Shown: positions 940 through 63,676 of the stretch, piece after piece
How positions within the stretch are numbered: position 1 is the stretch's first letter
Layout of the letters: each line of letters starts with the position of its first letter
From: Spirochaetia bacterium
GTDB lineage: Bacteria; Spirochaetota; Spirochaetia; CADAEX01
Direction of reading: 5' to 3'
NCBI GenBank assembly: GCA_963662795.1
Contig: OY759746.1
Location: 2,016,001 to 2,080,000, forward strand
DNA: 64,000 bases
Position numbers and translations under genes: made by a program
Notes under the pieces: model-generated
Databases searched by the model: none
What the model was told of the DNA's origin: nothing
Seen by the model: the letters and a program-made list of their open reading frames with translations, nothing else

Positions 940-1232
940 GTCCGGCCTTGGCGTTGCCGTGCGGCCTGGACAAGAAGCGGCTGGTACTGGAGCATAACAG
1001 CGATTATTTCGCTGCGCTCCCGATGGTCGCTTGGGCTCCTGCCAGTTGAGCTGGCAGATCGCCATATTTTGTTTTCATAAAACTGGAAGAACATGTATTT
1101 TATGCTTTTTAAAGTTTAAAAAACTAAATAAAAGTATTTTAGAGTTTAGCCACAAAACATCGAATAATCGCGAGACGTTATCCACAATATCATCGCAAGA
1201 TGCGATCGCCCGGACCTCCGGCCCACGGGCGA
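940..1232 (+). repeat. Composite junction site S1 (arm class 10 | alpha core | arm class 1)
   Basis: Hairpin A, GCGGCTGGTACTGGAGCATAAC ... GTTATCCACAATATCATCG, hairpin B. Confidence 0.9.
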
Positions 1233-1293
1233 AGAGATTATTATTGCAAACAAAACAATTATACTTTTATAATAAAGAATAAAGGAAATAGAA

Positions 1294-2367
1294 ATGAATT
1301 ACAGTCCAAAGATTAAACTGATTTCAGATAAGAATGATTTAAATATAGTATCATTTATTGTTCTCATCCTTTCAGATATTTTTATAAGCATTATTTTATT
1401 TTATGGATTAAGCCAGCAAATTGAGCAGTTTACTGATGAATACAAGTATTTCCCGTATGAATACAGAAACATATTGATTGATAAAAACTGGGTAGAAAAC
1501 AATATAATTGAAAAGACAGCAGAGCATATACTATCAAGAAAAAGAGCTACCTATGAAAAAATAAATATTGAATATAAATTACATCCAAAATGTCAGGAAA
1601 TTGAAGATGTATTTAAAGAAATTGAAAATGACAATAATTTAGTACTTTCTCTAGAAGAATATGAAAGGCTGTCAAATAACTATTATACACTTAATAAAGC
1701 AGAAAAAGAATCTGAAGCAGGAGAAAGACTACAGGAGGAAATAGTTACTGCTGAGAAGCGGTTAAAAGAAGAACAAAAAATTAATAATCTTATTGAAACA
1801 GTTTTTAGGCTTCAGAAGTATGACTTTACGAAAGATATAATCAGATTCAGAAAAGTATTTGCTTTAAAAAGAACAATATTTGATTTTATTTTTCTCTTAC
1901 CTGTATTGGTTGGTTTTATATATTGGAACAGAAGAGCATTTAAAGCAGAATCATATATACAGGTAATTGTCAGCTCGCATTATATAATAGTTGCATTCTT
2001 ACCAATATTTTTTGAAATAATCCGCCTTGTAATTGAGGTTATTCCAAAAATATTATTGAAAACAATTTACGATTTTCTGCTAAAACTAAATTTAATAACA
2101 TTATGGTATTATGTAGTGCTCTTGCTCTCAGTATTTTTCATTATTTTTATTATATGGTTTTTACAGACAAAGATATTTACAAAAGAGAAATATAGTATAA
2201 AACAATATGAAAAGAGTAAATGCATTATTTGCAATACTCGAGTTGATTACTCAAATAATAATTGTCCGGCATGTGGAGCATTATTAAAAGTTAAATGCAA
2301 AAATTGTGGAAAGGAAACTATAAATAATCTTCCATACTGTATTAATTGCGGTAGTAAAAATATTTGA
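1294..2367 (+). CDS. Membrane protein with C-terminal double zinc ribbon (copy 1)
   Basis: About 4 hydrophobic segments; four CxxC motifs at the C-terminus. Confidence 0.75.
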   Translation: MNYSPKIKLISDKNDLNIVSFIVLILSDIFISIILFYGLSQQIEQFTDEYKYFPYEYRNILIDKNWVENNIIEKTAEHILSRKRATYEKINIEYKLHPKCQEIEDVFKEIENDNNLVLSLEEYERLSNNYYTLNKAEKESEAGERLQEEIVTAEKRLKEEQKINNLIETVFRLQKYDFTKDIIRFRKVFALKRTIFDFIFLLPVLVGFIYWNRRAFKAESYIQVIVSSHYIIVAFLPIFFEIIRLVIEVIPKILLKTIYDFLLKLNLITLWYYVVLLLSVFFIIFIIWFLQTKIFTKEKYSIKQYEKSKCIICNTRVDYSNNNCPACGALLKVKCKNCGKETINNLPYCINCGSKNI

Positions 2368-2393
2368 GAGAAACTGGGTGCCTTGAAAAAGAA

Positions 2394-2664
2394 GTCCGGC
2401 CTTGGCGGTGCCGTACGGCCTGGACAAGAAGCGATGATACTGGTGGATAACAGAGGATAATGCGCTTCGCTCCCTTTGGTCGCTTGGGCTTCGCCACACA
2501 TCGTAGGTTTTGAACTACAACATTTATAAACAACAAGTGTTGGGAGAAGAATATTGCAGCTTTGGTATATTCATTCTTGGGTTACGATGCGTCGCTTATC
2601 CTCGGGACGTTATCCACAATATCATCGCAAGATGAGATCGCCCGGACCTCCGGCCCACGGGCGA
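2394..2664 (+). repeat. Composite junction site S2 (1 | beta | 1)
   Basis: CGATGATACTGGTGGATAAC ... GTTATCCACAATATCATCG. Confidence 0.9.
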
Positions 2665-2725
2665 AGAGATTATTATTGCAAACAAAACAATTATACTTTT
2701 ATAATAAAGAATAAAGGAAATAGAA

Positions 2726-3799
2726 ATGAATTACAATCCAAAGATTAAACTGATTTCAGATAAGAATGATTTAAATATAGTATCATTTATTGTTCTCATC
2801 CTTTCAGACATTTTTATAAGCATTATTTTATTTTATGGATTAAGCCAGCAAATTGAGCAGTTTACTGATGAATACAAGTATTTCCCGTATGAATACAGAA
2901 ACATATTGATTGATAAAAACTGGGTAGAAAACAATATAATTGAAAAGACAGCAGAGCATATACTATCAAGAAAAAGAGCTACCTATGAAAAAATAAATAT
3001 TGAATATAAATTACATCCAAAATGTCAGGAAATTGAAGATGTACTTAAAGAAATTGAAAATGACAATAATTTAGTACTTTCTCTAGAAGAATATGAAAGG
3101 CTGTTAAATAACTATTATACACTTAATAAAGCAGAAAAAGAATCTGAAGCAGGAGAAAGACTACAGGAGGAAATAGTTACTGCTGAGAAGCGGTTAAAAG
3201 AAGAACAAAAAATTGATAACCTTATTGAAACAGTTTTTAGGCTTCAGAAGTATGACTTTACGAAAGATATAATCAGATTCAGAAAAGTATTTGCTTTAAA
3301 AAGAACAATATTTGATTTTGTTTTTCTCTTACCTGTATTGGTTGGTTTTATATATTGGAATAGAAGAGCATTTAAGACAGAATCATATATACAGGTAATT
3401 GTCAGCTCGCATTATATAATAGTTGCATTCTTACCAATATTTTTTGAAATAATCCGCCTTGTAATTGAGGTTATTCCAAAAATATTATTGAAAACAATTT
3501 ACGATTTTCTGCTAAAACTAAATTTAATAACATTATGGTATTATGTAGTGCTCTTGCTCTCAGTATTTTTCATTATTTTTATTATATGGTTTTTACAGAC
3601 AAAGATATTTACAAAAGAGAAATATAGTATAAAACAATATGAAAAGAGTAAATGCATTATTTGCAATACTCGAGTTGATTACTCAAATAATAATTGTCCG
3701 GCATGTGGAGCATTATTAAAAGTTAAATGCAAAAATTGTGGAAAGGAAACTATAAATAATCTTCCATACTGTATTAATTGCGGTAGTAAAAATATTTGA
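2726..3799 (+). CDS. Membrane protein with C-terminal double zinc ribbon (copy 2, tandem duplicate cassette)
   Basis: Near-identical to 1294-2367 with a few substitutions. Confidence 0.75.
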   Translation: MNYNPKIKLISDKNDLNIVSFIVLILSDIFISIILFYGLSQQIEQFTDEYKYFPYEYRNILIDKNWVENNIIEKTAEHILSRKRATYEKINIEYKLHPKCQEIEDVLKEIENDNNLVLSLEEYERLLNNYYTLNKAEKESEAGERLQEEIVTAEKRLKEEQKIDNLIETVFRLQKYDFTKDIIRFRKVFALKRTIFDFVFLLPVLVGFIYWNRRAFKTESYIQVIVSSHYIIVAFLPIFFEIIRLVIEVIPKILLKTIYDFLLKLNLITLWYYVVLLLSVFFIIFIIWFLQTKIFTKEKYSIKQYEKSKCIICNTRVDYSNNNCPACGALLKVKCKNCGKETINNLPYCINCGSKNI

Positions 3800-3825
3800 G
3801 AGAAACTGGGTGCCTTGAAAAAGAA

Positions 3826-4096
3826 GTCCGGCCTTGGCGGTGCCGTACGGCCTGGACAAGAAGCGATGATACTGGTGGATAACAGAGGATAATGCGCTTC
3901 GCTCCCTTTGGTCGCTTGGGCTTCGCCACACATCGTAGGTTTTGAACTACATTGTTTAGAAACAACAGGCTTTAAAAGAGACAAATTACAACTTTGGAAT
4001 ATTCATTCTTGGGCTACGATGCGTCGCTTATCCTCGGGACGTTATAAGCAATGTTCCCGCAAGAGGAAATCGCCCGGACCTCCGGCCGACGGGCGA
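3826..4096 (+). repeat. Composite junction site S3 (1 | beta | 2)
   Basis: Right arm GTTATAAGCAATGTTCCCG. Confidence 0.9.
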
Positions 4097-4197
4097 GAGA
4101 TTTAATACAATAAATGATTTTCTCTATTGCCAAAATATGATATAAATAAAAGTTCTGAAAGCTTAAATATTGTGCCATTAAATGCTAAAGGATTTCA

Positions 4198-4827
4198 ATG
4201 AATTATCAGCCTAATAATATTCAGTTTAATTATAATGGAACGGAAGAATTATTATTATCAGATTATAATGAGAATACAAAATATTCGGGCATAGATTTTG
4301 CCGAACAAAATAATTCAAATATTGCTTTTGAAAATTGTAATTTTAAATCTTGTAGATTTGATAGTTTAATGTTAGAAAATATAAAATATTCATCATGCCT
4401 ATTTGAAAAATGTGAAATTATTTTAACTAAATTCAAAAATAATACCCTAAACGGTGTTAAATTTCTGGATTGTAAAATAATAGGGATTAATTTTACGGAA
4501 TGTAATGATTTTGGATTATCGCTTGATTTTGAAGGATCAATTCTTGACAGTGTTGTAATATTTGGAAAAGCATTAAAAAAAACAAATATTATTAAATGCA
4601 AAATAAAGAATTCATATTTTACTGACACTGATTTTAGAGAATCAAATTTCTCTGAAACTTACTTTGAAAAAGTAATCTTTCATAACTGCAATTTAGAAAA
4701 AAGTGATTTTAGAACAGCTTCAGGTTATGAAATTGATCCAAAAGATAACAAAATAAAAAATAGTAAATATAGACTTCCGGAAGCTCAATCGTTCTTAGGA
4801 TTTTTAGGGATAAAAATAGACTTCTAG
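4198..4827 (+). CDS. Pentapeptide repeat protein
   Basis: Five-residue periodicity (FENCN FKSCR F..., FHNCN LEKSD FRTA). Confidence 0.85.
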   Translation: MNYQPNNIQFNYNGTEELLLSDYNENTKYSGIDFAEQNNSNIAFENCNFKSCRFDSLMLENIKYSSCLFEKCEIILTKFKNNTLNGVKFLDCKIIGINFTECNDFGLSLDFEGSILDSVVIFGKALKKTNIIKCKIKNSYFTDTDFRESNFSETYFEKVIFHNCNLEKSDFRTASGYEIDPKDNKIKNSKYRLPEAQSFLGFLGIKIDF

Positions 4828-4850
4828 TTGTGGATAAAAAAGGAGGTTGA

Positions 4851-5444
4851 ATGTTAATATGCAATTCATTTTGTCCTGATGTGGATCAAGTAAAACATTT
4901 TCAAAAAAATAAGATAGATAATGAAAATATCAAAATGATCATAATATCAGAATCAGTACCCAAAAATATAACGGATTATTTTGACGGGAAAGGAGTTCCT
5001 GCATTTATTAAGAATACAAATACTTTATTTAATCAAATCGGATATGATTATAAAACATATGATGACTATTTAAGTAATGGTATTTATTTAACAACGGCAA
5101 TAAAATGTATAAAAAAAGGATATTTAGTATCAATAAAAACAATAGAAGAATGTTCATATATTCTGGAAAAGGAAATAATGTCTTTTATTAATGTAAAAGT
5201 AATAATGCTGATGGGTGATTTTGCTATTAAATCTATAAATTACATATGGAAAAGAAAATATAAGCAAAAAGTATTACCAAACGGTGCGACTTATAAAATT
5301 AGAAATGAAAAATATATATATAATGGAGTAAGGTTTATACCTTCATATACACAAACAGGAGATAGTTTTGGTATTGAAAAAAGTAAAGTATTAATGATGA
5401 AAGAAGATCTAGAACAAGGAATGAAAATAATAAAAGAAAAATGA
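4851..5444 (+). CDS. Uracil-DNA glycosylase-like superfamily protein
   Basis: IIISESVP, YLTTAIKC and VIMLMGD motifs. Confidence 0.65.
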   Translation: MLICNSFCPDVDQVKHFQKNKIDNENIKMIIISESVPKNITDYFDGKGVPAFIKNTNTLFNQIGYDYKTYDDYLSNGIYLTTAIKCIKKGYLVSIKTIEECSYILEKEIMSFINVKVIMLMGDFAIKSINYIWKRKYKQKVLPNGATYKIRNEKYIYNGVRFIPSYTQTGDSFGIEKSKVLMMKEDLEQGMKIIKEK

Positions 5445-5491
5445 ACAGGAAATATATATAGGTATAGTGTAATTACCTAACAGTTTAAGAA

Positions 5492-5744
5492 GTCCAGCCT
5501 TGGCTCCGCCGAGCGGCTTGGACAAGAAGCGGGAACACTGCTTATAACAGCGAATGACCGGTTCCGGCTGTTTCTAAGGAAACAGCCTCCACTCAAATTG
5601 CCGAAATAATACATGTTAAGAATAATGGAATAGAGTATAAACTTTTGGAGTGAAAAACACCATCGGCAACTTCGGTCATTCGCGAGACGTTAGCAGCAAT
5701 ACGTCCCCAAGATGCAATCGCCCGGACCTCCGGCCCACGGGCGA
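5492..5744 (+). repeat. Composite junction site S4 (2 | gamma | 3)
   Basis: CGGGAACACTGCTTATAAC ... GTTAGCAGCAATACGTCCCC. Confidence 0.9.
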
Positions 5745-5844
5745 AAGATTTAAATATTTTTTAAAAAATAGTGAGATATATAATTAATAAACTGAGTGAT
5801 TTGTGAATATAAAATATAATGCATTGGAATAGTTAAAGTTTAGC

Positions 5845-6689: not shown

Positions 6690-6943
6690 GTCCGGCCTTG
6701 GCGGTGCCGTGCGGCCTGGACAAGAAGGGACGTACTGCTGCTAACAGCGAATGACCGGTTCCGGCTGTTTCTAAGGAAACAGCCTCCACCCAAATTGCCG
6801 AAATAATACATGTCAAGAATAATGGAATAGAGTATAAACTTTTGGAGTTAAAAAAACACCATCGGCAACTTCGGTCATTCGCGAGACGTTATATGCAATA
6901 CGACCCCAAGAGGACGCCGCCCGGACCTCCGGCCCACGGGCGA
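6690..6943 (+). repeat. Composite junction site S5 (3 | gamma | 4)
   Basis: GGGACGTACTGCTGCTAAC ... GTTATATGCAATACGACCCC. Confidence 0.9.
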
Positions 6944-6958
6944 AGAAAATAGTATCTA

Positions 6959-10466: not shown

Positions 10467-10757
10467 GTCCGGCCTTGGCGGTGCCGTGCGGCCTGGACAA
10501 GAAGGGGTCGTACTGCATATAACAGCGATTATTTCGCTGCGCTCCCTGTGGTCGCTTGGGCTCCTGCCAGTTGAGCTGGCAGATCGCCATATTTTGTTTT
10601 CATAAAACCGGAACAACATGTGTTTTATACTCTTCAAGTTTGTAAAAACCAAATAAAAGTATTTTAGAGGTTAGTCACAAAACATCGAATAATCGCGAGA
10701 CGTTCTCCGAAATACCGCCCCAAGAAGAGATCGCCCGGACCTCCGGCCCACGGGCGG
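10467..10757 (+). repeat. Composite junction site S6 (4 | alpha | 5)
   Basis: GGGGTCGTACTGCATATAAC ... GTTCTCCGAAATACCGCCCC. Confidence 0.9.
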
Positions 10758-10865
10758 AAGATAGGAAAAGAAAATATAATAATCAGAAAGTGTTTAATAT
10801 TGCTAAAATGGATATTGATTATTTGACAACTTGACAAATAAAATAATTCAAAATATATTAATTGT

Positions 10866-11105
10866 ATGAAAACAATGCAAATAGGGGATTTTAAAGCTCA
10901 ATTTTCAAAGGTTCTTGAAGAAGTGAAACAAGGGGAAGAAATAATAATTTCTTATGGCAAGAAGAAAAAAAATGTAGCTGTAATAATTCCATATGAAGAG
11001 TATAAAGAGAAAAATAAGATAAAACTGGGCTTATTAAAGAATAAAGTAAGCTATAAATTTAATACTGATTATGAAATGACAGAAGAGGAGTTAGTAAACC
11101 TTTGA
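10866..11105 (+). CDS. Phd/YefM-family antitoxin
   Basis: DFKAQFSKVLEEVKQGEEIII motif; overlaps the PIN toxin gene. Confidence 0.85.
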   Translation: MKTMQIGDFKAQFSKVLEEVKQGEEIIISYGKKKKNVAVIIPYEEYKEKNKIKLGLLKNKVSYKFNTDYEMTEEELVNL

Positions 11106-11500
11106 AATATCTTCTCGATACGCATTATTTAATCTGGAGTTTGATTGATCCGGAAAAAATAGATAAGAAGAAAAAAAAGATATTATTAGATGAAAATTCG
11201 GAAAAATATATAAGCCAAATAAGCTTTTGGGAAATATCAATCAAATATTCACTTGGTAAGTTAGAATTAAATGGAATTACCCCTGAAGAATTGCTTGAAG
11301 CAGCGATTGAATCAGGATTTCAAATATTGGAATTGGAAACAAAAGTACTAGCAACATCGTATAAACTACCGAAGAAAGACAAGCACAAAGATCCTTTTGA
11401 CCGATTAATGATTTGGGAATGTATTTGCAATGAATATATTTTCTTGACAGAAGATGAAAAGGTAAAGGAATATAAAGAAAACGGCTTAAAAATAGTTTAG
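11102..11500 (+). CDS. vapC: VapC/PIN-domain toxin
   Basis: YLLDTH, SFWEI, HKDPFDR. Confidence 0.9.
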   Translation: MKYLLDTHYLIWSLIDPEKIDKKKKKILLDENSEKYISQISFWEISIKYSLGKLELNGITPEELLEAAIESGFQILELETKVLATSYKLPKKDKHKDPFDRLMIWECICNEYIFLTEDEKVKEYKENGLKIV

Positions 11501-11550
11501 AATAAAATCTATCAAATAAGTAGCAAACATAGACAGTAACAGAAAAACGC

Positions 11551-11833
11551 CCAAGCCTTGGCGGTGCCGTGCGGCTTGGAAGAGAGGGGCGGTACTTCGG
11601 AGAACAGCGATTATTTCGCTGCACTCCCGATGGTCGCTTGGGCTCCTGCCAGTTGAACTGGCAGATCGCCATATTTTGTTTTCATAAAACCAGAACTGCA
11701 TGTATTTTATGTTTTTTATGTTTAAAAAACCAAATAAATGTATTTTTAGAGGTTAGCCACAAAACATCGAATAATCGCGAGACGTTATTTGAAATGCCCC
11801 GTAGGAAAATATATCGCGCCTTCCTGGCGCGAT
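11551..11833 (+). repeat. Composite junction site S7 (5 | alpha | 6)
   Basis: GGGGCGGTACTTCGGAGAAC ... GTTATTTGAAATGCCCCGTA; variant hairpins. Confidence 0.9.
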
Positions 11834-12637: not shown

Positions 12638-12902
12638 AAGCCTATAGACGTCCTGTCTATAGGCTTAATACGGGGCACTTCAAATAACAGAGGATAATGC
12701 GCTACACTCGGAGTACCTCGCTTGGCCTGCGGCACACATCGTAGATATTAAGAATACAGCTTCTATAAACAACAAGTTTTTGAAAAAATATATTACAACT
12801 TTTAGGTATTCACACTTATCCTACGATGCGTCGCTTATCCTCGGGACGTTATATGCAATACGACCCCAAGAGAAATCGCCCGGACCTCCGGCCCACGGGC
12901 GA
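12638..12902 (+). repeat. Composite junction site S8 (6 | beta | 4)
   Basis: Hairpin AAGCCTATAGACGTCCTGTCTATAGGCTT; TACGGGGCACTTCAAATAAC. Confidence 0.9.
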
Positions 12903-15196: not shown

Positions 15197-15449
15197 GTCC
15201 GGCCTTGGCGGTGCCGTGCGGCCTGGACAAGAAGGGGTCGTACTGCATATAACAGCGAATGGCCGGTTCCGGCTGTTTCTAAGGAAGCAGCCTCCACCCA
15301 AATTGCCGAAATAATTCATGTTAAGAATAATGGAATAGAGTATAAACTTTTAAAGTGAAAAACACCATCGGCAACTTCGGTCATTCGCGGGACGTTATCC
15401 ACAATACCCCCACAAGAAGCGATCGCCCGGACCTCCGGCCGACGGGCGA
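15197..15449 (+). repeat. Composite junction site S9 (4 | gamma | 7)
   Basis: Same architecture as the other sites. Confidence 0.9.
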
Positions 15450-16205: not shown

Positions 16206-16477
16206 GTCCGGCCTTGGCTCCGCCGTACGGCCTGGACAAGAAGTGGGGGCACTGTTGGATAACAGAGGATAATTCGCTGCGCTCGGAATACCTCGCTTGG
16301 CCTGCGGCATATTTTGCTATCAATAAAACAGTTCATATTATATTTTTACTCTCTTTAAATATATTTCCCAAGACTATTATGTTAAAAAAGGTTTTAGCAA
16401 AACATCGCTTATCCTCAGGACGTTATCCACAATGCCCCCACAAGATGCGATCGCCCGGACCTCCGGCCGACGGGCGA
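16206..16477 (+). repeat. Composite junction site S10 (7 | beta variant | 7)
   Basis: Same architecture. Confidence 0.9.
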
Positions 16478-17203: not shown

Positions 17204-17475
17204 GTCCAGCCTTGGCTCCGCCGTACGGCCTGGACAAGAAGTGGGGGCACTGGTGGATAACAGAGGATACTGCGCTACGCTCGGAGTACCTCGCTTGGCC
17301 TTCGGCACACATCACAGGTTTTAAATTACTGCTTTTAGAATTAACAAGTTTTCAAAAGAAAGATATATAATATTTGTCTTTTTATTCATTGGCTGTGATT
17401 CGTCGCGTATCCTCAAAACGTTATCCACAATGCCCCCACAAGAGAAAATCGCCCGGGCCTCCGGCCGACGGGCGA
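17204..17475 (+). repeat. Composite junction site S11 (7 | beta | 7)
   Basis: TGGGGGCACTGGTGGATAAC ... GTTATCCACAATGCCCCCA. Confidence 0.9.
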
Positions 17476-18233: not shown

Positions 18234-18506
18234 GTCCGGCCTTGGCTTCCAGCCGTGCGACCTGGACAAGAAGTGGGGGCCCTGGTGGATAACAGAGGAT
18301 AAAGCGCTTCGCTCGGAGTACCTCGCTTGACCTTCGGCACACATCGTAGGGTTTAAACTACCTCTTTAAGAAATACTTAGTTTTGGAAGAAAAATATTAC
18401 AACTTTGAAATAATAATTCTTGAGCTACGATGCGTCGCTTATCCTCGGGACGTTCTCCGAAATACCGCCCCAAGAGGAGACGCCCGGACCTCCGGCCCAC
18501 GGGCGA
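18234..18506 (+). repeat. Composite junction site S12 (7 | beta | 5)
   Basis: Same architecture. Confidence 0.9.
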
Positions 18507-18779
18507 GGAAATATAGGCAAAGAAATAATATTTGATATTTTCCCTATAGCATATTCTGAACAACCAAAAGATTGTATTTTGAGAATATTTATTTGGATTT
18601 AAATAAAATTAATAAAAAAAGATCGAATTCTGGATATTTTAAGGATTTTGTCGTGTGATATTATTCCGAAAGAAATGTTTAATAAGTGTTTTAAAAAAGT
18701 AATATTACGAATTAAAAAACCTTGTAGATTTGGTATTTAAAGTGTATACTATGAAGTGTATACTAAAAGAGGTAGAATT

Positions 18780-19025
18780 ATGGAAATAAGTACAAAAGAA
18801 CTCAGGATAAAACCTGGTAGAATAATAGAAAAAGTCTCAAATGGACAGGAAGTTGTAGTAACTTTCAGAGGAAAAGCATTGGCTAGAATAGTGCCTATGC
18901 CTAATTTGGGAAAAAATATCGAAGAGAATGAAAAAGAAGAACTCTTTGGATTATGGAAAAATCATAAAAATATTGGTGATGTTGATAATTACGTAAGAAA
19001 AATAAGAAAAGGAAGAGAGTTTTGA
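18780..19025 (+). CDS. Phd/YefM-family antitoxin
   Basis: ISTKELR...VVVTFRGKALARIVP. Confidence 0.8.
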   Translation: MEISTKELRIKPGRIIEKVSNGQEVVVTFRGKALARIVPMPNLGKNIEENEKEELFGLWKNHKNIGDVDNYVRKIRKGREF

Positions 19026-19399
19026 TAATTGATACAGATGTAATAATATGGTTTTTAAGAGGAAATGAAAAAGCCAAGGAAGTAGTTTATAAAAATATCC
19101 CATTTAAAATATCTGTAATAACCTATATGGAAATTGTGCAGGGAATGAAAGATAAAAAAGAATTATTAGTTTTTCAAAAGCAGTTGAGAAAATGGAATGT
19201 AGAGATTTTACAAATAGATACAGAAATATCGTCAAGAGCGATGTTTTTTGTAGAAGATTATTTTTTAAGTCATTCAATGGAATTATCAGATGCTTTAATT
19301 GCAGCGACAGGAATACAAACAAAAGATATAGTATTAACAGCAAATGATAAACATTATAAATTTATTCCCAACATTCAGTTGGAAAAGTTTAAACCTTAG
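19022..19399 (+). CDS. vapC: VapC/PIN-domain toxin
   Basis: IIDTDV, DALIAAT, TANDKHY. Confidence 0.9.
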   Translation: MIIDTDVIIWFLRGNEKAKEVVYKNIPFKISVITYMEIVQGMKDKKELLVFQKQLRKWNVEILQIDTEISSRAMFFVEDYFLSHSMELSDALIAATGIQTKDIVLTANDKHYKFIPNIQLEKFKP

Positions 19400-19405
19400 A
19401 AAGCC

Positions 19406-19666
19406 CCAAGCCTTGGCGGTGCCGTGCGGCTTGGAAGAAGGGGCGGTACTTCCGAGAACAGCGGTTAAAGCGCTACGCTCGCAGTAGCTCGCTTGGGCTC
19501 CTGCCTGTGCGCAGGCAGTTCACCAAAAAAACACGAGTTACTCCAAGCTATAAATTAAAGAAAGTAAACATACAATGCAAATAGATTAATGTGTTTTCTT
19601 CGCTTAACCGCGGGACGTTATTTGAAATGCCCCGTAGGAAAATATATCGCGCCGTCCTGGCGCGAT
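19406..19666 (+). repeat. Composite junction site S13 (5 | delta | 6)
   Basis: Same architecture. Confidence 0.9.
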
Positions 19667-20470: not shown

Positions 20471-20733
20471 AAGCCTATAGACGTCCTGTCTATAGGCTTA
20501 ATACGGGGCACTTCAAATAACAGAGGATAAAGCGCTACGCTCCCTTTGGTCGCTTGGGCTTCGCCACACATCGTAGGGTTTTTACTACAACATCTAAAAA
20601 CAACAAGTTTTGGAAGAAAATATTGCAACTTTGAAAATATCATTCTTATCCTACGATGCGTCGCTTATCCTCGGGACGTTATATGCAATACGACCCCAAG
20701 AGAAAATCGCCCGGACCTCCGGCCCACGGGCGA
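20471..20733 (+). repeat. Composite junction site S14 (6 | beta | 4)
   Basis: Same architecture. Confidence 0.9.
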
Positions 20734-34696: not shown

Positions 34697-34712
34697 GGCA
34701 TTGCACTATGCT

Positions 34713-41996: not shown

Positions 41997-42287
41997 GTCC
42001 GGCCTTGGCGGTGCCGTGCGGCCTGGACAAGAAGCCCAGCCACAGCCGATAACAGCGATTATTTCGCTGCGCTCCTTGTGGTCGCTTGGGCTCCTGCCAG
42101 TTGAGCTGGCAGATCGCCATATTTTGTTTTCATAAAACCGGAACAACATGTGTTTTATGCTTTTCAAGTTTGTAAAACCCAAATAAAAGTATTTTAGAGT
42201 TTAGTCACAAAACATCGAATAATCGCGAGACGTTATCCACAATATCATCGCAAGATGACACCGCCCGGACCTCCGGCCAACGGGCGA
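41997..42287 (+). repeat. Composite junction site S25 (11 | alpha | 1)
   Basis: GCCCAGCCACAGCCGATAAC. Confidence 0.9.
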
Positions 42288-43567: not shown

Positions 43568-43858
43568 TCCGGCCTTGGCATTGCCGTGCGGCCTGGACAA
43601 GAAGCGATGATACTGGTGGATAACAGCGATTATTTCGCTGCGCTCCCTGTGGTCGCTTGGGCTCCTGCCAGTTGAGCTGGCAGATCGCCATATTTTGTTT
43701 TCATAAAATCGGAATGACATGTGTTTTATGCTCTTCAAGTTTGTAAAAACCAAATAAAAGTATTTTAGAGTTTAGTCACAAAACATCGAATAATCGCGAG
43801 ACGTTCTCCGAAATACCGCCCCAAGAGAACATCGCCCGGACCTCCGGCCAACGGGCGA
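43567..43858 (+). repeat. Composite junction site S26 (1 | alpha | 5)
   Basis: Same architecture. Confidence 0.9.
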
Positions 43859-43939
43859 GGAAATTGAGTATAAAGTCGTCTTTTACATTGCTATTGAATA
43901 TTATAAGTTCAATCTCTTTTTTTAGGTAAATAAAAGGTT

Positions 43940-44263
43940 TTGCAAATGATAAATGAAAAAATCGAAACAATGGGATGCTGCGGTGCATACTGTGGAAAGT
44001 GCAAAGAGTTTGAAAAAAAATTATGTGCGGGGTGTAAAATTGGTTATAAGAATATCGAAAGAGATATCAAAAAAGCAAAATGTAAAATTAAAAAATGTTG
44101 CCTTTTGAAAAAGATAAATTCATGTGCTGATTGCTATGAATATGACAATTGCGTAATAATAAATGAATTTTATAGTAAAAATGGTTATAAATATAAAAAA
44201 TACAAAGAAGCATTGGATTTTATAAAAAAGAATGGCTATCCAACATTCTTTAAAAATAATTGA
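43940..44263 (+). CDS. DUF3795-like Cys-rich protein
   Basis: CCGAYCGKC...CAGC...CKIKKCC...SCADC. Confidence 0.7.
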   Translation: MQMINEKIETMGCCGAYCGKCKEFEKKLCAGCKIGYKNIERDIKKAKCKIKKCCLLKKINSCADCYEYDNCVIINEFYSKNGYKYKKYKEALDFIKKNGYPTFFKNN

Positions 44264-45075
44264 AAAATGGAATATGCAATATGGAAAGTATTAAGAAAAA
44301 TCAAATGAAAGTAACAGCTTTTATTGGAAGTGCCCGTAAGAAACATACTTACAATACATGTCAAATGTTATTAGAAAAATTAGAATCTTTTAAAAACATA
44401 GAAACAGAAATTATATGTCTGAATAATTACAATTTGCAGGTTTGTAAAGGGTGTAAGGCTTGTCTTGACAGGGGAGAAGAAAATTGTCCTTTAAAAGATG
44501 ATAGAGATATTTTAATAAAAAAGATGAAAGAATCAGATGGAGTAATATTTGCTACACCAAATTATAGTTTTAATGTATCAGCATTAATGAAATTATTTCT
44601 TGATCGGCTTGCATATTTTGGACATAGACCAGCTTTTTTTGGAAAAACTTTTACCAGTGTTGTTGTGCAGGGAATATTTGGGGGAGAAAAAATTGTTAAA
44701 TATTTAGATTTTTTAGGGAATGCCATTGGATATAATGTAGTAAATGGGTCTCTTATAAATTCCCTTGAACCTATGACAGAAACAAATCAAAAGAAGAATG
44801 AAATAGCTATAGAGAAACAGGCTAATAAGTTTTATAAGCAATTAATCAAAAATGAATTTAAAAACCCTACATTACTTGAATTATTTATTTTCAGAATGTC
44901 TAGAAGCAGTATTAAGACAATGCTTGATGAAAATTATAGGGATTATGAATATTATAAGAAAAATGGATGGTTTGATTCAGCTTTCTATTATCCAGTAAAA
45001 ATAAACATATTAGAAAAAAAACTTGGAAATATTTTTGATAAAATATCGGTGAAAATATCTAAAAATCGTAAATGA
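44260..45075 (+). CDS. Flavodoxin-like NADPH-dependent FMN reductase (iron-sulfur flavoprotein type)
   Basis: GSARK, CKGCKAC...C, ATPNY, MKLFLDR; true start may be 44281 or 44305. Confidence 0.85.
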   Translation: MKNGICNMESIKKNQMKVTAFIGSARKKHTYNTCQMLLEKLESFKNIETEIICLNNYNLQVCKGCKACLDRGEENCPLKDDRDILIKKMKESDGVIFATPNYSFNVSALMKLFLDRLAYFGHRPAFFGKTFTSVVVQGIFGGEKIVKYLDFLGNAIGYNVVNGSLINSLEPMTETNQKKNEIAIEKQANKFYKQLIKNEFKNPTLLELFIFRMSRSSIKTMLDENYRDYEYYKKNGWFDSAFYYPVKINILEKKLGNIFDKISVKISKNRK

Positions 45076-45099
45076 GTTTTATAGAAAGAAATATTTTTA

Positions 45100-45370
45100 G
45101 TCCGGCCTTGGCGTTGCCGTGCGGCCTGGACAAGAAGCGATGATACTGGTGGATAACAGAGGATAAAGCGCTACGCTCGGAGTACCTCGCTTGGCCTGCG
45201 GCACACATCGTAGATTTTGAACACAACTTCTATAAGCAGCCAGTTTTAGAAGATAAATACTGCAACTTTGTAATATTCAATCTTAGACTACGATGCGTCG
45301 CTTATCCTCGGGACGTTATCCACAATATCATCGCAAGAGAACGCCGCCCGGACCTCCGGCCAACGGGCGA
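45100..45370 (+). repeat. Composite junction site S27 (1 | beta | 1)
   Basis: Left arm does not match the S26 right arm. Confidence 0.9.
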
Positions 45371-45385
45371 AGAAAATAGAATCTT

Positions 45386-45443
45386 CTGTATAATATACTT
45401 TATTCATAACATATATTGTTTCTAGTTATTTAATATGTTAGAT
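45386..45443 (+). promoter_or_regulatory. attI-like capture segment of carrier cassette 5
   Basis: CTGTATAATATACT...TTCTAGTTATTTAATAT|GTTAGAT. Confidence 0.7.
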
Positions 45444-45468
45444 CGACGCTTTTGGCGCGAGGAGTGAA

Positions 45469-46617
45469 ATGAAAAAATCAATTTCAATAATGCTTGATAC
45501 CTCCATCTATAAACAGACGCCCAAACTAAACTCCGAACTATTTAAACGCTTCATAAAATACTCTCAAATAGGTTTTTTTAAACTGTATATATCTGAAATT
45601 ATTGAGAATGAATATATAACTTGGATTAAGAAAGAATCACAAGACGCACATGAAAACGTCGTTAAAAGCACAGAAGCCTTGAACAAGTTCTATGAGAAAC
45701 CTGATTTCTTTGGTTTGAATTTAAGGTACAACATTACAGCAGAAATAGCACAGACTCAAATCAATGAAATACTTAAGAAAGTACTCGAGAATTGGAATAC
45801 CTATAAGAAAGAAACAAAGGCTATTGTGATTCCGATTCATGACACTGATGGTAAACAAGTTATGAATGCATACTTTAACGGGAGCAAACCATTCAAAGCC
45901 GTTAAAAACAGATTGGATATTCCAGATGCCTTTATTTATTTCGCAATTATTCGAATATTAAAAACCGTCGATAAGATGGTATTCATTACACGTGATAAAG
46001 ACTTTTCAAATAGGATTAATAATGAAAGGATCAAAGTTTTTGAGAATCTAACAGAATTATTCTCAAAAGAAGAATATTCATTACAAAATGACTATTTCAA
46101 AGAATTAAACACAAATGACAAGGCATACTTCGTATTACAATACTTCAAGAAAGAAATAACAAGGAAGCTAGAACGACAAATCGAGATTACAGCATTATTC
46201 CCTGATTCGGAGCAAGAGCTAATCGATCACATTATTGGTGAGTATAAAGATTTAACTATAAAAACTAAGAATAGTGTACTGAATCTTAAGACTGTAAGAA
46301 TAATATCTGCCCTTTCGTTTCTCATTGAATTCACATCAGAAGTAGAATACTTGATCTCTTCAAAGGCAACAAAGGCTGACTTAGAATATGCAGGATCAGA
46401 AAGAATAAAAAAACTCAAAGGAAAGGAAATAAACGATGAAGACCTTTTTGATATCATCGAAGAAACTGTGATATCAATCGGTGGTAATATAAGTATTTCG
46501 TTCAAGGATTCCGATCCATTGATGTGGTCAGAGAAAGTAGTTAGTAACAATATTTTTCCAATAACTGAATTAGAGGAAATTAATATTGTTATAGAAGATT
46601 TTAAAAGATTGACCTAA
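45469..46617 (+). CDS. PIN-domain protein (DUF4935-like)
   Basis: IMLDTSIY, KPF, DIPDAFIY, FITRDKDF. Confidence 0.75.
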   Translation: MKKSISIMLDTSIYKQTPKLNSELFKRFIKYSQIGFFKLYISEIIENEYITWIKKESQDAHENVVKSTEALNKFYEKPDFFGLNLRYNITAEIAQTQINEILKKVLENWNTYKKETKAIVIPIHDTDGKQVMNAYFNGSKPFKAVKNRLDIPDAFIYFAIIRILKTVDKMVFITRDKDFSNRINNERIKVFENLTELFSKEEYSLQNDYFKELNTNDKAYFVLQYFKKEITRKLERQIEITALFPDSEQELIDHIIGEYKDLTIKTKNSVLNLKTVRIISALSFLIEFTSEVEYLISSKATKADLEYAGSERIKKLKGKEINDEDLFDIIEETVISIGGNISISFKDSDPLMWSEKVVSNNIFPITELEEINIVIEDFKRLT

Positions 46618-46670
46618 CAATCGGTTCAACTTGATTCAGCTACGCCTCACAAGTTAAGCTAATGTTATAA
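46612..46670 (+). repeat. Canonical attC site (59 bp)
   Basis: ACCTAAC-AATCGGTTCAACTTG...CAAGTTAAGCTAAT-GTTATAA with an extrahelical base. Confidence 0.85.
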
Positions 46671-46694
46671 AAATCAAAGATAGAAACGGGGGAA

Positions 46695-46949
46695 GTCCGG
46701 CCTTGGCGTTGCCGTGCGGCCCTGGACAAGAAGCGATGATACTGGTGGATAACAGCGAATGACCGGTTCCGGCTGTTTCTAAGGAAACAGCCTCCACCTA
46801 AATTGCCGAAATAATACATGTTAAGAATAATGGAAAAGAGTATAAACTTTTGGAGTGAAAACACCATCGGCAACTTCGGTCATTCGCGGGACGTTAGCAG
46901 CAATACGTCCCCAAGAAGACAATCGCCCGGACCTCCGGCCGACGGGCGA
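46695..46949 (+). repeat. Composite junction site S28 (1 | gamma | 3)
   Basis: Same architecture. Confidence 0.9.
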
Positions 46950-48480: not shown

Positions 48481-48752
48481 GTCCAGCCTTGGCTCCGCCG
48501 TGCGGCCTGGACAAGAAGGGGACGTACAGCTGCTAACAGAGGATAATTCGCTTCGCTCGGAGTACCTCGCTTGGCCTGCGGCACACATCGCAGGTTTCGA
48601 ACTACAACTTATATAAGCAACAAGTTTTTGAAAAATAAATACTGCAATTTTGAAATATTTATACTTTGGATGCGATGCGTCGCTTATCCTCGGGACGTTA
48701 TAAGCAATGTTCCCGCAAGAGAACATCGCCCGGACCTCCGGCCGACGGGCGA
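48481..48752 (+). repeat. Composite junction site S29 (3 | beta | 2)
   Basis: Same architecture. Confidence 0.9.
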
Positions 48753-50827: not shown

Positions 50828-51083
50828 GTCCGGCCTTGGCTTCCAGCCGTGCGGCCTGGACAAGAAACGGGAACACAGCTTATAACAGCGAATGACCGGT
50901 TCCGGCTGTTTCTAAGGAAACAGCCTCCACCCAAATTGCCGAAATAATACATGTTAAGAATAATGGAATAGAGTATAAACTTTTGGAGTGAAAAACACCA
51001 TCGGCAACTTCGGTCATTCGCGAGACGTTATGCTCAATACCAGCCGCAAGAGAAAGCCGCCCGGACCTCCGGCCCACGGGCGA
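50828..51083 (+). repeat. Composite junction site S30 (2 | gamma | 10)
   Basis: Same architecture. Confidence 0.9.
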
Positions 51084-52003: not shown

Positions 52004-52259
52004 GTCCGGCCTTGGCTGTGCCGTGCGGCCTGGACAAGAAGCGGCTGGTACTGGAGCATAACAGCGAATGACCGGTTCTGGCTGTTTCTAAGGAAACAGC
52101 CTCCACCCAAATTGCCGAAATAATACATGTTAAGAATAATGGAATAGAGTATAAACTTTTGAAATGAAAAACGCCATCGGCAACTTCGGTCATTCGCGGG
52201 ACGTTATCGGCAATGGCTGGGCGAAGAAAACACCGCCCGGACCTCCGGCCAACGGGCGA
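52004..52259 (+). repeat. Composite junction site S31 (10 | gamma | 11)
   Basis: Same architecture. Confidence 0.9.
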
Positions 52260-53343: not shown

Positions 53344-53590
53344 GTCCGGCCTTGGCGTTGCCGTGCGGCCTGGACAAGACGCCCAGCCACAGCCGATAAC
53401 AGCGAATGGCCGGTTCCGGCTGTTTCTAAGGAAGCAGCCTCCACCCAAATTGCCGAAATAATAAATGTTAAGAATAATGGAATAGAGTATAAACTTTTGA
53501 AGTGAAAGACACCATCGGCAACTTCGGTCATTCGCGGGACGTTATTTGAAATGCCCCGTAGGAAAATATATCGCGCCGTCCTGGCGCGAT
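53344..53590 (+). repeat. Composite junction site S32 (11 | gamma | 6)
   Basis: Same architecture. Confidence 0.9.
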
Positions 53591-54400: not shown

Positions 54401-54663
54401 AAGCCTATAGACGTCCTGTCTATAGGCTTAATACGGGGCACTTCAAATAACAGAGGATAATTCGCTGCGCTCGGTTTCCCTCGCTTGGCCTGCGGCACAC
54501 ATCGTAGGGTTTGAACCACAACTTCAATGAACAACCATTTTTGGGGAAAATAATACAACTTTTAGATTTTCATGGTTATTCTACGATGCGTCGCTTATCC
54601 TCAGGACGTTCTCCGAAATACCGCCCCAAGAAGAGATCGCCCGGACCTCCGGCCAACGGGCGA
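54401..54663 (+). repeat. Composite junction site S33 (6 | beta | 5)
   Basis: Same architecture. Confidence 0.9.
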
Positions 54664-55915: not shown

Positions 55916-56205
55916 CCAAGCCTTGGCGTTGCCGTGCGGCTTGGAAGAGAGGGGCGGTACTTCGGAGAACAGCGATTATTTCGCTGCGCTCCCTATGGTA
56001 GCTTGGGCTCCTGCCAGTCGAACCGGCAGATCGCCATATTTTGTTTTCATAAAACCAGAACTGCATGTATTTTATGCTTTTTAATTTTAAAAAAATTAAA
56101 AAAATGTATTTTTAAAGTTTAGCCGCAAAACATCGAATAATCGCGAGACGTTATCCACAATATCATCGCAAGAAAGCGCCGCCCGGACCTCCGGCCAACG
56201 GGCGA
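55916..56205 (+). repeat. Composite junction site S34 (5 | alpha | 1)
   Basis: Same architecture. Confidence 0.9.
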
Positions 56206-61954: not shown

Positions 61955-62200
61955 GTCCGGCCTTGGCGTTGCCGTGCGGCCCTGGACAAGAAGCGATGAT
62001 ACTGGTGGATAACAGCGGTTAAAGCGCTGCACTCGGAGTACCTCGCTTGGGCTTCGCCATAAAGGCGCGAACAAATACAGGTTAGGTCTAGAGTAATCAA
62101 TAAAACTTGTTTATTTTAAAGCAAGTGCGCCTTCATCGCTTAACCGCGGGACGTTAGTAGCAATACCCCGCCAAGAGAGAAGCGTGCCGTCCTGGCACGC
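61955..62200 (+). repeat. Composite junction site S35 (1 | delta | 12)
   Basis: Right arm GTTAGTAGCAATACCCCGCC; variant hairpin B. Confidence 0.9.
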
Positions 62201-62246
62201 AAGAATACAAATATAATTATTTTTAACTAATAAGAGAGAAAGAAAA

Positions 62247-62747
62247 ATGAAAACATTAAATGATTATGTATCAGAGTACAAAAAGCAAATGGAGAAGAGT
62301 GATATTCAAAAAGCCTATAGAGGAATCATTGATTACATGATGAGCCTTAGAACATATTTTGAAAAAAATTATAGTGATTATTTTGTTTCCGGAAGCCTTT
62401 ACAATGGTTATATGGATATGACTTATTTCTCTCTTACACCAGCATTTTTAAAAGAAAAAAAATTAAAAATAGCTATAGTTTTTATACATGAGAATATAAG
62501 TTTTGAAGTTTGGCTTTCAGGATACAATAAAAGCATACAGAAAAAGTATTGGAAGTATTTTAAAGAAAGGAAATGGAATAAATATCTTATACCAGATGAT
62601 ATAAATGGAAAAGATTCAATAATTGAATACATTATTGAAGATAAACCTAATTTCGATAATTTAAACTTTTTAACACGAAAAATAGAGAAAGAAGTCCTCA
62701 TATTTATTAAGGATATAATAAAATTGTTAGAAAAAGAAACTGAATAG
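62247..62747 (+). CDS. Conserved-looking hypothetical protein
   Basis: 166-aa ORF, GYMDMTYF...FEVWL.G.N. Confidence 0.7.
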   Translation: MKTLNDYVSEYKKQMEKSDIQKAYRGIIDYMMSLRTYFEKNYSDYFVSGSLYNGYMDMTYFSLTPAFLKEKKLKIAIVFIHENISFEVWLSGYNKSIQKKYWKYFKERKWNKYLIPDDINGKDSIIEYIIEDKPNFDNLNFLTRKIEKEVLIFIKDIIKLLEKETE

Positions 62748-62802
62748 AAAACTTGATTAATAGTATAAACATAGTATATACTATTAATCAAGGATGATTT
62801 AT

Positions 62803-63039
62803 ATGGAAACTGTAATTAAGAAATGGGGTAATAGCCTGGGAGTAAGAATACCAAGTCTTATGGCTAAAGATTTATCTTTAAAAGACGGCTCATTTGTAGA
62901 AATTGAAGAAGAAGGGGATAAAATAGTCATAAAACAAAAGAAAAAGACTAATTTAAATGAAATGCTAAGGAGCATTGATATTAATAATCTTCATGGCGAA
63001 ATAGATACAAATAGTCCGGTAGGAAATGAAATATGGTAA
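62803..63039 (+). CDS. mazE: MazE/AbrB antitoxin
   Basis: IKKWGNSLGVRIP. Confidence 0.9.
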   Translation: METVIKKWGNSLGVRIPSLMAKDLSLKDGSFVEIEEEGDKIVIKQKKKTNLNEMLRSIDINNLHGEIDTNSPVGNEIW

Positions 63040-63374
63040 AGAAGGTCTATATTCCTGAAAGGGGAGATATAATCTGGTTAGATTTTACACCGCAATCAGG
63101 CCATGAACAGATGGGGAAAAGACCTGCAATTGTAGTTTCCCCAAAAGAATATAATGAAAAAGTAGGACTAGGACTATTTTGTCCCATAACAAGTAAAGAA
63201 AAAGGTTATCCATTTGAAGTGAAGATAGAAAATAAGAAAATAGATGGAGTTATATTATCAGATCAGCTTAAAAGTCTTGATTGGAAGAGCCGAAATGCAG
63301 AGTTTATAGTAAAAGCAAAAAAAGAAGAAATAAATGAAGTTATAGAAAAAATCAGTGTATTGATATTTGTATAA
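63033..63374 (+). CDS. mazF: MazF/PemK endoribonuclease toxin
   Basis: PERGDIIWLDF.PQSGHEQ...RPA. Confidence 0.92.
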   Translation: MVKKVYIPERGDIIWLDFTPQSGHEQMGKRPAIVVSPKEYNEKVGLGLFCPITSKEKGYPFEVKIENKKIDGVILSDQLKSLDWKSRNAEFIVKAKKEEINEVIEKISVLIFV

Positions 63375-63390
63375 AAACCCCAGAAAAAGA

Positions 63391-63676
63391 AACCAAGCTG
63401 CCGTCCATGGCATCTTGGTTAAGGCGGGGTACTGCTACTAACAGCGATTATTTCGCTGCGCGCCCGATGGTCGCTTGGGCTCCTGCCAGTTGAGCTGGCA
63501 GATCGCCATATTTTGTTTTCATAAAACCTGAACGATATATGTTTTATGCTTTTTATGTTTGAAAAACCAAATAAATGTATTTTTAGAGTTTAGCCACAAA
63601 ACATCGAATAATCGCGAAACGTTATCCACAATGCCCCCACAAGAGAAAATCGCCCGGACCTCCGGCCGACGGGCGA
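63391..63676 (+). repeat. Composite junction site S36 (12 | alpha | 7)
   Basis: GGCGGGGTACTGCTACTAAC ... GTTATCCACAATGCCCCCA. Confidence 0.9.

Follow-up and report, generated by a model that had tools for sequence, protein, structure and literature searches.

Mutually complementary cassette ends in a large, apparently integron-like array of a Spirochaetia bacterium

Introduction

Why should the two ends of a gene cassette be complementary to each other when they lie 0.5 to 5.9 kb apart? This question is raised by a stretch of 64,000 nucleotides (nt), hereafter the window, from a Spirochaetia bacterium (GCA_963662795.1, contig OY759746.1; G000:C1:2016001-2080000 in our numbering), in which gene cassettes follow each other head to tail, separated by imperfect palindromes that lie between an AAC and a GTT triplet. 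A preliminary description of the window had noted that the short "arm" following GTT is the reverse complement of the arm preceding the next AAC, and had proposed that the two ends pair in a single-stranded intermediate, either by extending a stem in the excised circle or as an end-matching code that defines which segment is excised.

Integrons are the textbook example of recombination on folded single-stranded DNA, and the insertion by which IntI reads extrahelical bases is treated as their defining feature. It is also classical integron knowledge that a cassette begins with bases complementary to the inverse core at its own far end. Here, we describe the cassette ends of this array, the recombinase next to it and the related arrays of other bacteria, and we weigh what the complementary ends could be for.

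Results

The window belongs to a single array of about 194 cassettes

The source genome is a single contig of 3.93 Mb with a G+C content of 39.7%. The array extends in it from C1:1847951 to about 2180706, which corresponds to ~333 kb, ~194 cassettes and ~8.5% of the genome, and its G+C content (~30%; 27-36% in the window) is about 10 points lower than that of the genome. Cassettes have a median length of 1299 bp (base pairs) and range from 482 to 5863 bp across the array. Sites were located with two nhmmer profiles, one for the GTT side (R', 198 hits) and one for the AAC side (R'', 199 hits), with 196 hits of each on the + strand. AAC and GTT alternate along the array with three exceptions, and all 194 units share one orientation (+).

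On the + strand, a site starts with a GC-rich hairpin (U), AAGAAG, a 17-nt arm, AAC, one A and a long imperfect palindrome, and continues with G(A/G)GAC, GTT, a second 17-nt arm, CAAGAG and a second hairpin (D). The top-strand layout can thus be written as (3' arm, 17 nt)-AAC-A-(L''...core...L')-G(A/G)GAC-G|TT-(5' arm, 17 nt). In the 144 sites that fit a strict pattern, AAC and the G of GTT are 135-182 nt apart, with modes at 179, 141 and 158-159 nt. The L''/L' stems bear single-base bulges, and the spacer next to the triplets is one-sided, with 1 nt opposite 5 nt; the 5-nt bulge, GTC(C/T)C, directly follows AAC on the bottom strand. Two motifs, GACGTTAT and ATAACAG, are conserved in nearly all sites.

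Both U and D lie just inside the arms. The D hairpin (CGCCCG, 13 nt, CGGGCG; e.g., window 5709-5745) is present in 158 of the 194 cassettes and the U hairpin (GTCCGGCC..GGCCTGGAC; e.g., window 5480-5528) in 139; minority variants of both are clean hairpins with (G)TCCT loops, and the hairpins and the 5-nt bulge have a recurrent GTCC/GGAC motif in common. Pairing of U with D to lengthen the stem was considered and rejected, as folding gives each of them as a local hairpin. No Rfam family was found in the window at gathering thresholds.

The array starts with a G|TT at C1:1847951, located 150 nt past the stop codon of a gene encoding a 339-amino-acid tyrosine recombinase that has the same orientation as the cassettes. 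The first cassette carries a VapBC pair, and its 3' arm is complementary to the 20 nt that follow the G of this attI-like G|TT. An insertion site next to the recombinase gene, with the first cassette at G|TT, is an integron feature, and it is likewise found in three related loci described below (L003, L004 and G011). Since the GC skew has its minimum at 1.40 Mb and its maximum at 3.43 Mb, the bottom strand of the array is the leading-strand template.

The two arms of a cassette match each other

For each cassette, we compared the 5' arm (G|TT plus 17 nt) with the reverse complement of the 3' arm (17 nt plus AAC) and counted a match when the score reached at least 10 over the 20 positions. Own-cassette arms matched in 189/194 cassettes of the genome and in 33/34 of the window, with a median of 19 identical positions out of 20 per pair. 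By comparison, the two arms within the same site matched in only 56/194 cases, and 5000 random arm pairs matched at a rate of 10.9%. The relation first noticed in the window, namely that an arm is complementary to the other end of its cassette and not to its neighbor in the site, therefore holds along the whole array. The example pair given for it was also confirmed: GTTATAAGCAATGTTCCCG at 4041 (+) has its reverse complement at 5530-5548 with one mismatch, and GTTATAAGCAATGTTCCCG has four matches in the window against 0.01 expected.

Cassette 33633-35835 was counted as one unit despite a decayed inner R'' at 34559; the 32 of 35 matching intervals reported earlier are the same count with this decayed site taken as a site. 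The number of arm classes, given as 12 in the preliminary description, rises to 14 in the window when exact 5'-arm 17-mers are counted, and to 42 in the genome. Across these 42 17-mers only GTTAT and AA are conserved. The commonest class is carried by 40 cassettes, and 56/194 sites have arms of the same class on both sides, compared to the 10.9% expected from random pairs. The sole true mismatch in the window is cassette 43803-45157, which contains two open reading frames and combines a CTCCGA 5' arm with an ATCCAC..TATCATCG 3' arm. It is probably a fusion of two cassettes from which the junction between them was lost.

The arms form a continuous 20-bp stem with one fixed wobble

The paired ends had been described as 9 bp, an unpaired AA and about 8 bp. 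This geometry was not borne out: the arms form a continuous stem of 20 bp (GTT plus 17 nt), which takes in the GTT and AAC triplets themselves and is marked by one fixed wobble. In 61 of the 63 distinct arm pairs, position 11 has A in the 5' arm but G in the reverse complement of the 3' arm, which amounts to A facing C on the top strand and to a G.T wobble on the bottom one. An A-T pair occupies position 10 in 46/63 arm pairs, and some arm classes have a 1-nt bulge near positions 8-9.

Positions 4-9 and 12-20 each show two to four types of Watson-Crick pairs, with pairing kept in 56-63 of the 60-63 arm pairs scored (at least 93%). Among near-identical arm variants, which differ at one or two positions, 30 changes are mirrored in the opposite arm and 49 occur in one arm only. 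This is in agreement with the compensatory covariation proposed earlier, and it indicates that pairing has been maintained, either by selection or by correction inside the hairpin.

As had been suggested together with the initial observation, circle junctions were then built in silico by linking the two ends of each cassette at G|TT, and their folding was computed with DNA parameters (n = 193). On the bottom strand, the circle junction folded with a mean of -42.7 kcal/mol, compared to -33.1 kcal/mol for the same site in its array context. The difference averaged -9.6 kcal/mol (median -12.5 kcal/mol) and was below -5 kcal/mol in 69% of the cases, and the hairpin was indeed extended; in one folded example, the outer stem of the bottom strand ran unbroken through the wobble. 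Furthermore, the bottom strand was more stable than the top strand by 3.8 kcal/mol. Preference for folding of the bottom strand, an integron feature, is thus present both in the energies and in the 61/63 wobble, and the fixed G.T on this strand points to it as the strand selected to fold.

The array recombinase lacks the IntI-specific region

The array recombinase scored 214.5 bits with NCBIfam XerA_Arch (cutoff 220) and 200.1 bits, in two stretches, with TIGR02249 (cutoff 265); a genome-wide search returned the same two TIGR02249 pieces. In the alignment with VchIntIA (2a3v), residues 72-234 of the query correspond to IntI 9-172 and residues 259-337 to IntI 239-317, so that IntI residues 173-238 face just 24 query residues. 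From this two-piece alignment we conclude that the recombinase is devoid of the IntI-specific region near patch III, the integron feature that the intI_Cterm profile of IntegronFinder and the TIGR02249 model describe. The protein aligns end to end with archaeal XerA (4a8e), at 131 bits compared to 132.5 bits for IntI4, and its AlphaFold model (pLDDT 84) is closest to IntI4 and XerA.

The recombinase carries an N-terminal extension of 70 residues with a beta-beta-alpha-beta-beta-alpha fold. Homologues from Spirochaetia conserve this domain (L001:6782-6985, residues 1-68), those from Bacteroidota lack it, and Flavobacterium homologues without it are nevertheless associated with arrays that have arms. 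The HARP domain recognizes branched DNA. Weak HARP-like signals were obtained with the N-terminal 68 residues (Pfam PF07443, E = 0.16; Foldseek 4o66, E = 0.19, probability 0.75), and we take a HARP-like nature of the domain as a lead rather than as a finding.

Other recombinase genes are present in the genome. Two paralogues, at window 34713-35597 (-) and at G000:C1:1881758-1882309 (-), lie inside cassettes on the opposite strand; they are 37-43% identical to the array recombinase and have no N-terminal extension. The one in the window encodes 294 amino acids, is 37% identical to the array recombinase and lies within cassette 33633-35835. Further Xer-like genes are found at 3.077 and 3.082 Mb. 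The genome also has, outside the window, a canonical-type intI at G000:C1:412371-413302 (+). It spans TIGR02249 positions 4-314, including the IntI-specific region, but is distributed over two frames with two TGA stops and one TAG stop; a search of 14 kb to each side of it gave only chance hairpins and no cassette array.

The mobile unit appears to be polar and its core is often exchanged

To define the unit that moves, we analyzed the duplicated cassettes of the array, which form 24 clusters of two to four copies and 50 pairs. The arms were the same in 49/50 pairs, and identity between duplicates stopped at both triplets. The core family was kept downstream in 22/50 pairs and upstream in 9/50, against a chance level of 0.19. 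A downstream core at least 97% identical, followed by a next cassette that was not duplicated, was found in 15/50 pairs, compared to 1/50 for the upstream core. Similarly, the core family was associated with the arm class of the upstream cassette (p = 0.0005, 2000 permutations) and not with that of the downstream cassette (p = 0.35). Retention of the downstream core and its association with the upstream arms together suggest a polar unit consisting of a cassette and its downstream core, as in integrons.

The rule is shared with other lineages and goes with the recombinase type

The nearest relatives of the recombinase are encoded in Spirochaetia metagenome-assembled genomes. The layout of a recombinase gene followed by an array was also found in L003 (recombinase 79% identical), L004/G007 (54-59%), G011 (46%) and a Flavobacterium silvisoli locus, L020 (44%). 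Sites in these loci were found by crude structure-based scripts; the fractions of matching intervals are lower bounds, diluted by false and missed sites, and only contrasts and the position-11 count are used here. The nhmmer profiles built from the junctions of the source genome gave no match in 80 related loci.

L003 has the same start, with an attI-like site, arm and hairpin. In L004/G007, cassette ends pair over 16-17 bp with one A/G difference. In G011, which belongs to another genus, 10/17 intervals matched compared to 0/18 own-site comparisons. Its arm classes are new, but some are common to both genomes, such as ATGCTC..TACCAGCCG and ATCCAC..TATCATCGC, and because of these identical classes we suggest that the two genomes draw on a shared cassette pool. 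The G011 array (L083/L086, G011:C1:3201200-3241199) is much shorter, with cores of 61-181 nt. In the F. silvisoli locus, whose recombinase has no N-terminal extension, 7/9 intervals pair over 15-19 bp, and all seven (7/7) have A/G at position 11. More generally, A/G was found at position 11 in 26/26 matched pairs of Bacteroidota-type loci (crude finder, 24/131 intervals matched). The U and D hairpins are absent from the L004 and Flavobacterium arrays.

As a control, we analyzed a spirochaete array associated with a canonical IntI (504 bits, cutoff 265). There, the complementary run from GTT between the ends of the same cassette had a median of only 7 bp (range 4-11 bp, n = 23 cassettes), with nothing beyond. 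We thus conclude that the long, wobble-marked stem goes with the insertion-less recombinase and not with the phylum.

Junctions of the window and an array fragment elsewhere in the genome

All 35 junctions of the window lie on the + strand. The first (979-1196) comprises a 20-nt 3' arm ending in AAC (C at 998), a core with 179-nt spacing and the G at 1177 that opens cassette 1177-2451. This cassette is closed by junction 2 (2432-2628; AAC 2451, G 2609), which opens 2609-3883 and belongs to class ATCCAC..TATCATCGC. Junction 3 (3864-4060; AAC 3883, G 4041), of class ATAAGC..TGTTCCCGC, opens cassette 4041-5548, and junction 4 (5529-5708; AAC 5548, G 5689) holds the 5530-5548 partner of the arm at 4041.

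The following ones, each given as its span with the positions of AAC and G in brackets, are junction 5 at 6726-6907 (6745, 6888), 6 at 10504-10721 (10523, 10702), 7 at 11586-11803 (11605, 11784), 8 at 12669-12867 (12688, 12848), 9 at 15234-15413 (15253, 15394), 10 at 16244-16441 (16263, 16422), 11 at 17242-17439 (17261, 17420), 12 at 18274-18471 (18293, 18452), 13 at 19440-19636 (19459, 19617), 14 at 20502-20697 (20521, 20678), 15 at 22724-22903 (22743, 22884), 16 at 25027-25207 (25046, 25188), 17 at 28046-28243 (28065, 28224), 18 at 29748-29942 (29767, 29923) and 19 at 31986-32184 (32005, 32165).

Junction 20 (33454-33652; AAC 33473, G 33633) opens the fused cassette 33633-35835. The decayed inner cassette end that it contains (34500-34600, + strand) consists of a degenerate U hairpin, a 3' arm ending in GCAAAC (34559) and a partial core without R'. 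Junction 21 (35816-36012; AAC 35835, G 35993) has a 3' arm that matches the 5' arm at 33633. It is followed by junction 22 at 36888-37084 (36907, 37065), 23 at 40651-40849 (40670, 40830), 24 at 42034-42251 (42053, 42232) and 25 at 43605-43822 (43624, 43803), the last of which opens the two-class cassette 43803-45157. The remaining ones are junction 26 at 45138-45334 (45157, 45315), 27 at 46734-46912 (46753, 46893), 28 at 48518-48716 (48537, 48697), 29 at 50867-51046 (50886, 51027), 30 at 52043-52222 (52062, 52203), 31 at 53381-53560 (53400, 53541), 32 at 54432-54627 (54451, 54608), 33 at 55951-56169 (55970, 56150), 34 at 61994-62172 (62013, 62153) and 35 at 63423-63640 (63442, with G 63621 placed by the 179-nt spacing), which closes cassette 62153-63442.

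A short, canonical-looking attC of ~56 nt (CCTAAC...GTTAT; L boxes GTTCAAC and GTTAAGC) is located at window 46613-46668, inside cassette 45315-46753 and immediately ahead of its U hairpin and 3' arm. It would fit a canonical cassette nested in a carrier cassette. Far from the array, at G000:C1:450400-451750, lies a fragment of it that holds two genes along with a U hairpin, a 3' arm and a core. It is cut within its R' spacer, at an end that resembles TATGTCAACATAG, and an end of this kind also breaks a D hairpin inside the array at C1:2133150. Together, these two observations suggest damage and relocation mediated by an insertion sequence (IS). Finally, Logan contigs of run X9, which bears a second organism label, contain cassettes ~92-93% identical to window 10732-11578 and 18481-19433 in different neighborhoods. 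The contigs of four public runs break at conserved modules, and their joints mostly reflect repeats or a related strain.

Discussion

The cassettes of this array follow a pairing rule in which the arms of one cassette covary and the two strands differ; the rule is linked to a Xer/IntI-like recombinase without the IntI insertion, and it holds in other lineages as well. We propose, with a probability of about 0.7 and from sequence analysis, that this very large array is integron-like and that the two arms of a cassette are the halves of an extended outer stem (R box) of an attC-like hairpin. In this scheme, the adjacent recombinase would move the cassettes by acting on the folded bottom strand, with strand exchange at G|TT or immediately beside it. 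A crossover at this point would leave everything 3' of the G to the next cassette, and each cassette would thus own both halves of its outer stem. In the array, these halves would remain 0.5-5.9 kb apart, and a site would be closed only by AAC/GTT and the shared AT unless its neighbors belong to the same arm class. In the excised circle, they would abut the core and close the 20-bp stem with its wobble at position 11. The long stem could then stabilize or flag the folded site of the free circle for integration, array sites being poorer substrates. The wobble, which would lie one helical turn from the AA|C cut, and the one-sided 5-nt bulge may together play the strand-choice role of extrahelical bases. 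The proposal of pairing in a single-stranded intermediate is consistent with the covariation, with the gain of stem in the in silico circles and with the G.T wobble; what the preliminary description had not recognized is that this is the integron cassette rule.

Several points weigh against this interpretation. Excision, circles and integration are predictions here, made from assembled sequence. The recombinase has no IntI-specific region, the one used by classical folded-single-strand chemistry, and single-strand recombination is therefore an assumption. Since 56/194 array sites are already flanked by arms of the same class, the long stem is not strictly specific to circles, and since the two conserved site motifs occur nearly everywhere, the crossover cannot be placed to the nucleotide. 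The complementarity could also be kept by repair inside the hairpin instead of by selection on integration. Moreover, the downstream core is replaced in 35/50 duplicate pairs, which a single G|TT crossover does not predict, and 22 of these 35 pairs break sharply at AAC (at least 95% identity before and at most 70% just after); the other 13 have mosaic cores or a less identical flank. We see three candidate routes for core replacement: two array sites could exchange top strands at AA|C, with loss of the downstream neighbor but not of its core; a Xer-like enzyme could recombine duplex DNA at the left-hand half-site; or short homologies could allow conversion.

The arms might instead pair across their cassette on single-stranded DNA within the array, so that the flanking hairpins are juxtaposed and exactly one cassette is excised. 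That the arms belong to the same cassette in 189/194 cases, that GTT and AAC are part of the stem and that identity between duplicates ends at both triplets would all be expected then. However, pairing would have to span 0.5-5.9 kb, on an array whose bottom strand is the leading-strand template by GC skew and where, following the parts of PMC5371416 compared here, little single-stranded DNA is expected. A code read in this way would also often be ambiguous, given the 40 cassettes with one 17-mer and the 56/194 sites with neighbors of the same class, and the AAC/GTT end of the stem would face away from the L boxes, without the R-box/L-box layout of a recombination hairpin. We therefore consider this explanation unlikely. 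An end-matching code, as formulated in the preliminary description, is unsupported: one and the same 17-mer serves 40 unrelated cassettes.

If the arms were terminal inverted repeats of transposon-like gene units cut at GTT and AAC, with the cores as linkers or target, the retention of both arms in 49/50 duplicate pairs, the 35/50 replaced downstream cores with the sharp break at AAC in 22, and the subterminal hairpin at each end would be readily explained. Such a unit should however not be polar, whereas cores at least 97% identical are retained downstream in 15/50 pairs and upstream in 1/50. Nor would it account for the single orientation of 194/194 units or for an array that begins, in four lineages, at an attI-like site next to a tyrosine recombinase gene. 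A transposase reading the ends would not be expected to tolerate 42 17-mers that have only GTTAT and AA in common, no target duplication is seen, as the core lies directly beyond the triplets, and outside the array units are encountered only as IS-associated fragments. Altogether, this makes terminal inverted repeats very improbable.

Pairing at the RNA level, in a long array transcript in which the arms would bracket each message as a processing or stabilizing stem, seems to us hardly tenable. Cassette genes and arms do share a strand, a 20-bp stem does flank each coding unit and hairpins do lie immediately inside both arms. Yet the sense strand has an A.C mismatch at position 11 in 61/63 arm pairs, the wobble existing only on the antisense (bottom) strand, the stem begins exactly at the recombination triplets, the rule persists in arrays without U and D hairpins, and the window contains no Rfam match. 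Finally, a passive relic, that is, a long palindromic site split on integration whose pairing is no longer selected, would agree with the sharing of arm classes by unrelated cassettes, by which much of the pattern is descent, and with the 49 unmirrored single-arm differences between close variants, but is extremely unlikely in view of the 30 mirrored single-step changes, of the 56-63 of 60-63 arm pairs kept paired at each variable position and of a non-Watson-Crick position that is conserved in the arrays of both Spirochaetia and Flavobacterium, with recombinases at 44-54% identity.

Beyond the outer-stem interpretation, we tentatively raise a broader hypothesis, which we hold to be possible rather than probable. 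Spirochaetia and Bacteroidota may share an integron-like branch without the IntI insertion, in which the stem is long and cassette specific, a single G.T fixed at position 11, one helical turn from the cut, takes the place of extrahelical bases in marking the strand and the arm to be cleaved, and the core is exchangeable through an AAC-side exchange, on the top strand or as duplex. If such an AAC-side exchange were true, a cassette would be defined by its two arms and not by its attC.

Comparison with known systems

The array shares with classical integrons a tyrosine recombinase gene, an attI-like site, a one-way array (~194 sites) with imperfect palindromes between AAC and GTT, and cassettes whose first bases complement the inverse core at their own end, over a median of 7 bp in the canonical spirochaete array. 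In both, G:T pairs favor the bottom strand, as described in the consulted part of PMC5027507, which also treats the role of extrahelical bases in strand choice at classical sites. The bottom strand of the array is on the leading-strand template, as in most sedentary chromosomal integrons; the passages of PMC5371416 compared here give this orientation for 25/30 of them and link it to larger arrays.

Several features set the array apart from classical integrons. The own-cassette stem measures 20 bp and has a fixed wobble at position 11, compared to about 7 bp, and of the 7-bp R boxes (RYYYAAC/GTTRRRY) the triplets are conserved, but R' is mostly GTTAT... The spacer is a one-sided 5-nt bulge, and AAC to G measures 135-182 nt (144 sites), beyond the 57-141 bp quoted for attC in the passage of PMC3053210 consulted. 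Cores are often exchanged between cassette copies, extra hairpins lie inside both arms, and the array is ~333 kb long. The recombinase is without the IntI-specific region, which is the defining feature of IntI for the authors of IntegronFinder, according to the sections of PMC4889954 consulted. In its Supplementary Figures S1 and S5, the same source reports 21 integrases that lie near attC sites but have no IntI region, and relatives may be among them. The array departs from classical integrons in the extent (20 bp) and the fixed wobble of its stem, in its enzyme, in its exchangeable cores and additional hairpins, and in its size.

The Flavobacterium and other Bacteroidota arrays have in common with ours the insertion-less recombinase type, the complementary ends of each cassette and the non-Watson-Crick position 11. 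Distinctive of the present array are its place in a Spirochaetia chromosome, its ~194 cassettes, its cores of 140-180 nt in several exchangeable families, its GC-rich U and D hairpins and the 70-amino-acid N-terminal extension of its recombinase.

Xer is known to act on the folded single strand of a phage. A link to the XerA and XerCD-dif systems is the end-to-end alignment of the array recombinase with XerA (4a8e). Unlike these systems, which use a 28-bp dif-like site, the array has hundreds of structured sites, an attI-like site and cassette-specific stems. A single dif-type site (two 11-bp arms and a centre of 6-8 bp) with a housekeeping role near the terminus is not what we found, as hairpins of 140-180 nt recur ~194 times at 0.45-0.78 Mb from the skew minimum. 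IS200/IS605-type elements resemble the array in their asymmetric ends, their subterminal hairpins and a presumed single-strand circular intermediate. In contrast to these elements, the array has no linked HUH transposase, its units are joined head to tail at recombination hairpins, and the ends of each unit are mutually complementary.

Full-text literature searches, in which hits were mostly judged by title and the start of the abstract, returned no description of cassette-specific extended stems, of a fixed wobble at position 11 or of large arrays next to recombinases without the IntI region. The standard detection tool requires the IntI insertion, and the array described here is tied to a recombinase without it. 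Bacteroidetes are credited with only one complete integron in the part of the IntegronFinder 2.0 preprint consulted (10.1101/2022.02.28.482270), and our data suggest that a large reservoir of cassette arrays may have escaped surveys in phyla to which few integrons are attributed. With 333 kb, the array exceeds any figure in the published passages compared, where up to 203 cassettes are given (PMC5371416). Arm matching, the wobble and the one-sided bulge provide three testable variables for strand choice and for the recognition of free versus integrated cassettes. Overall, the exchangeable cores call into question the rule that a cassette consists of a gene and its attC.

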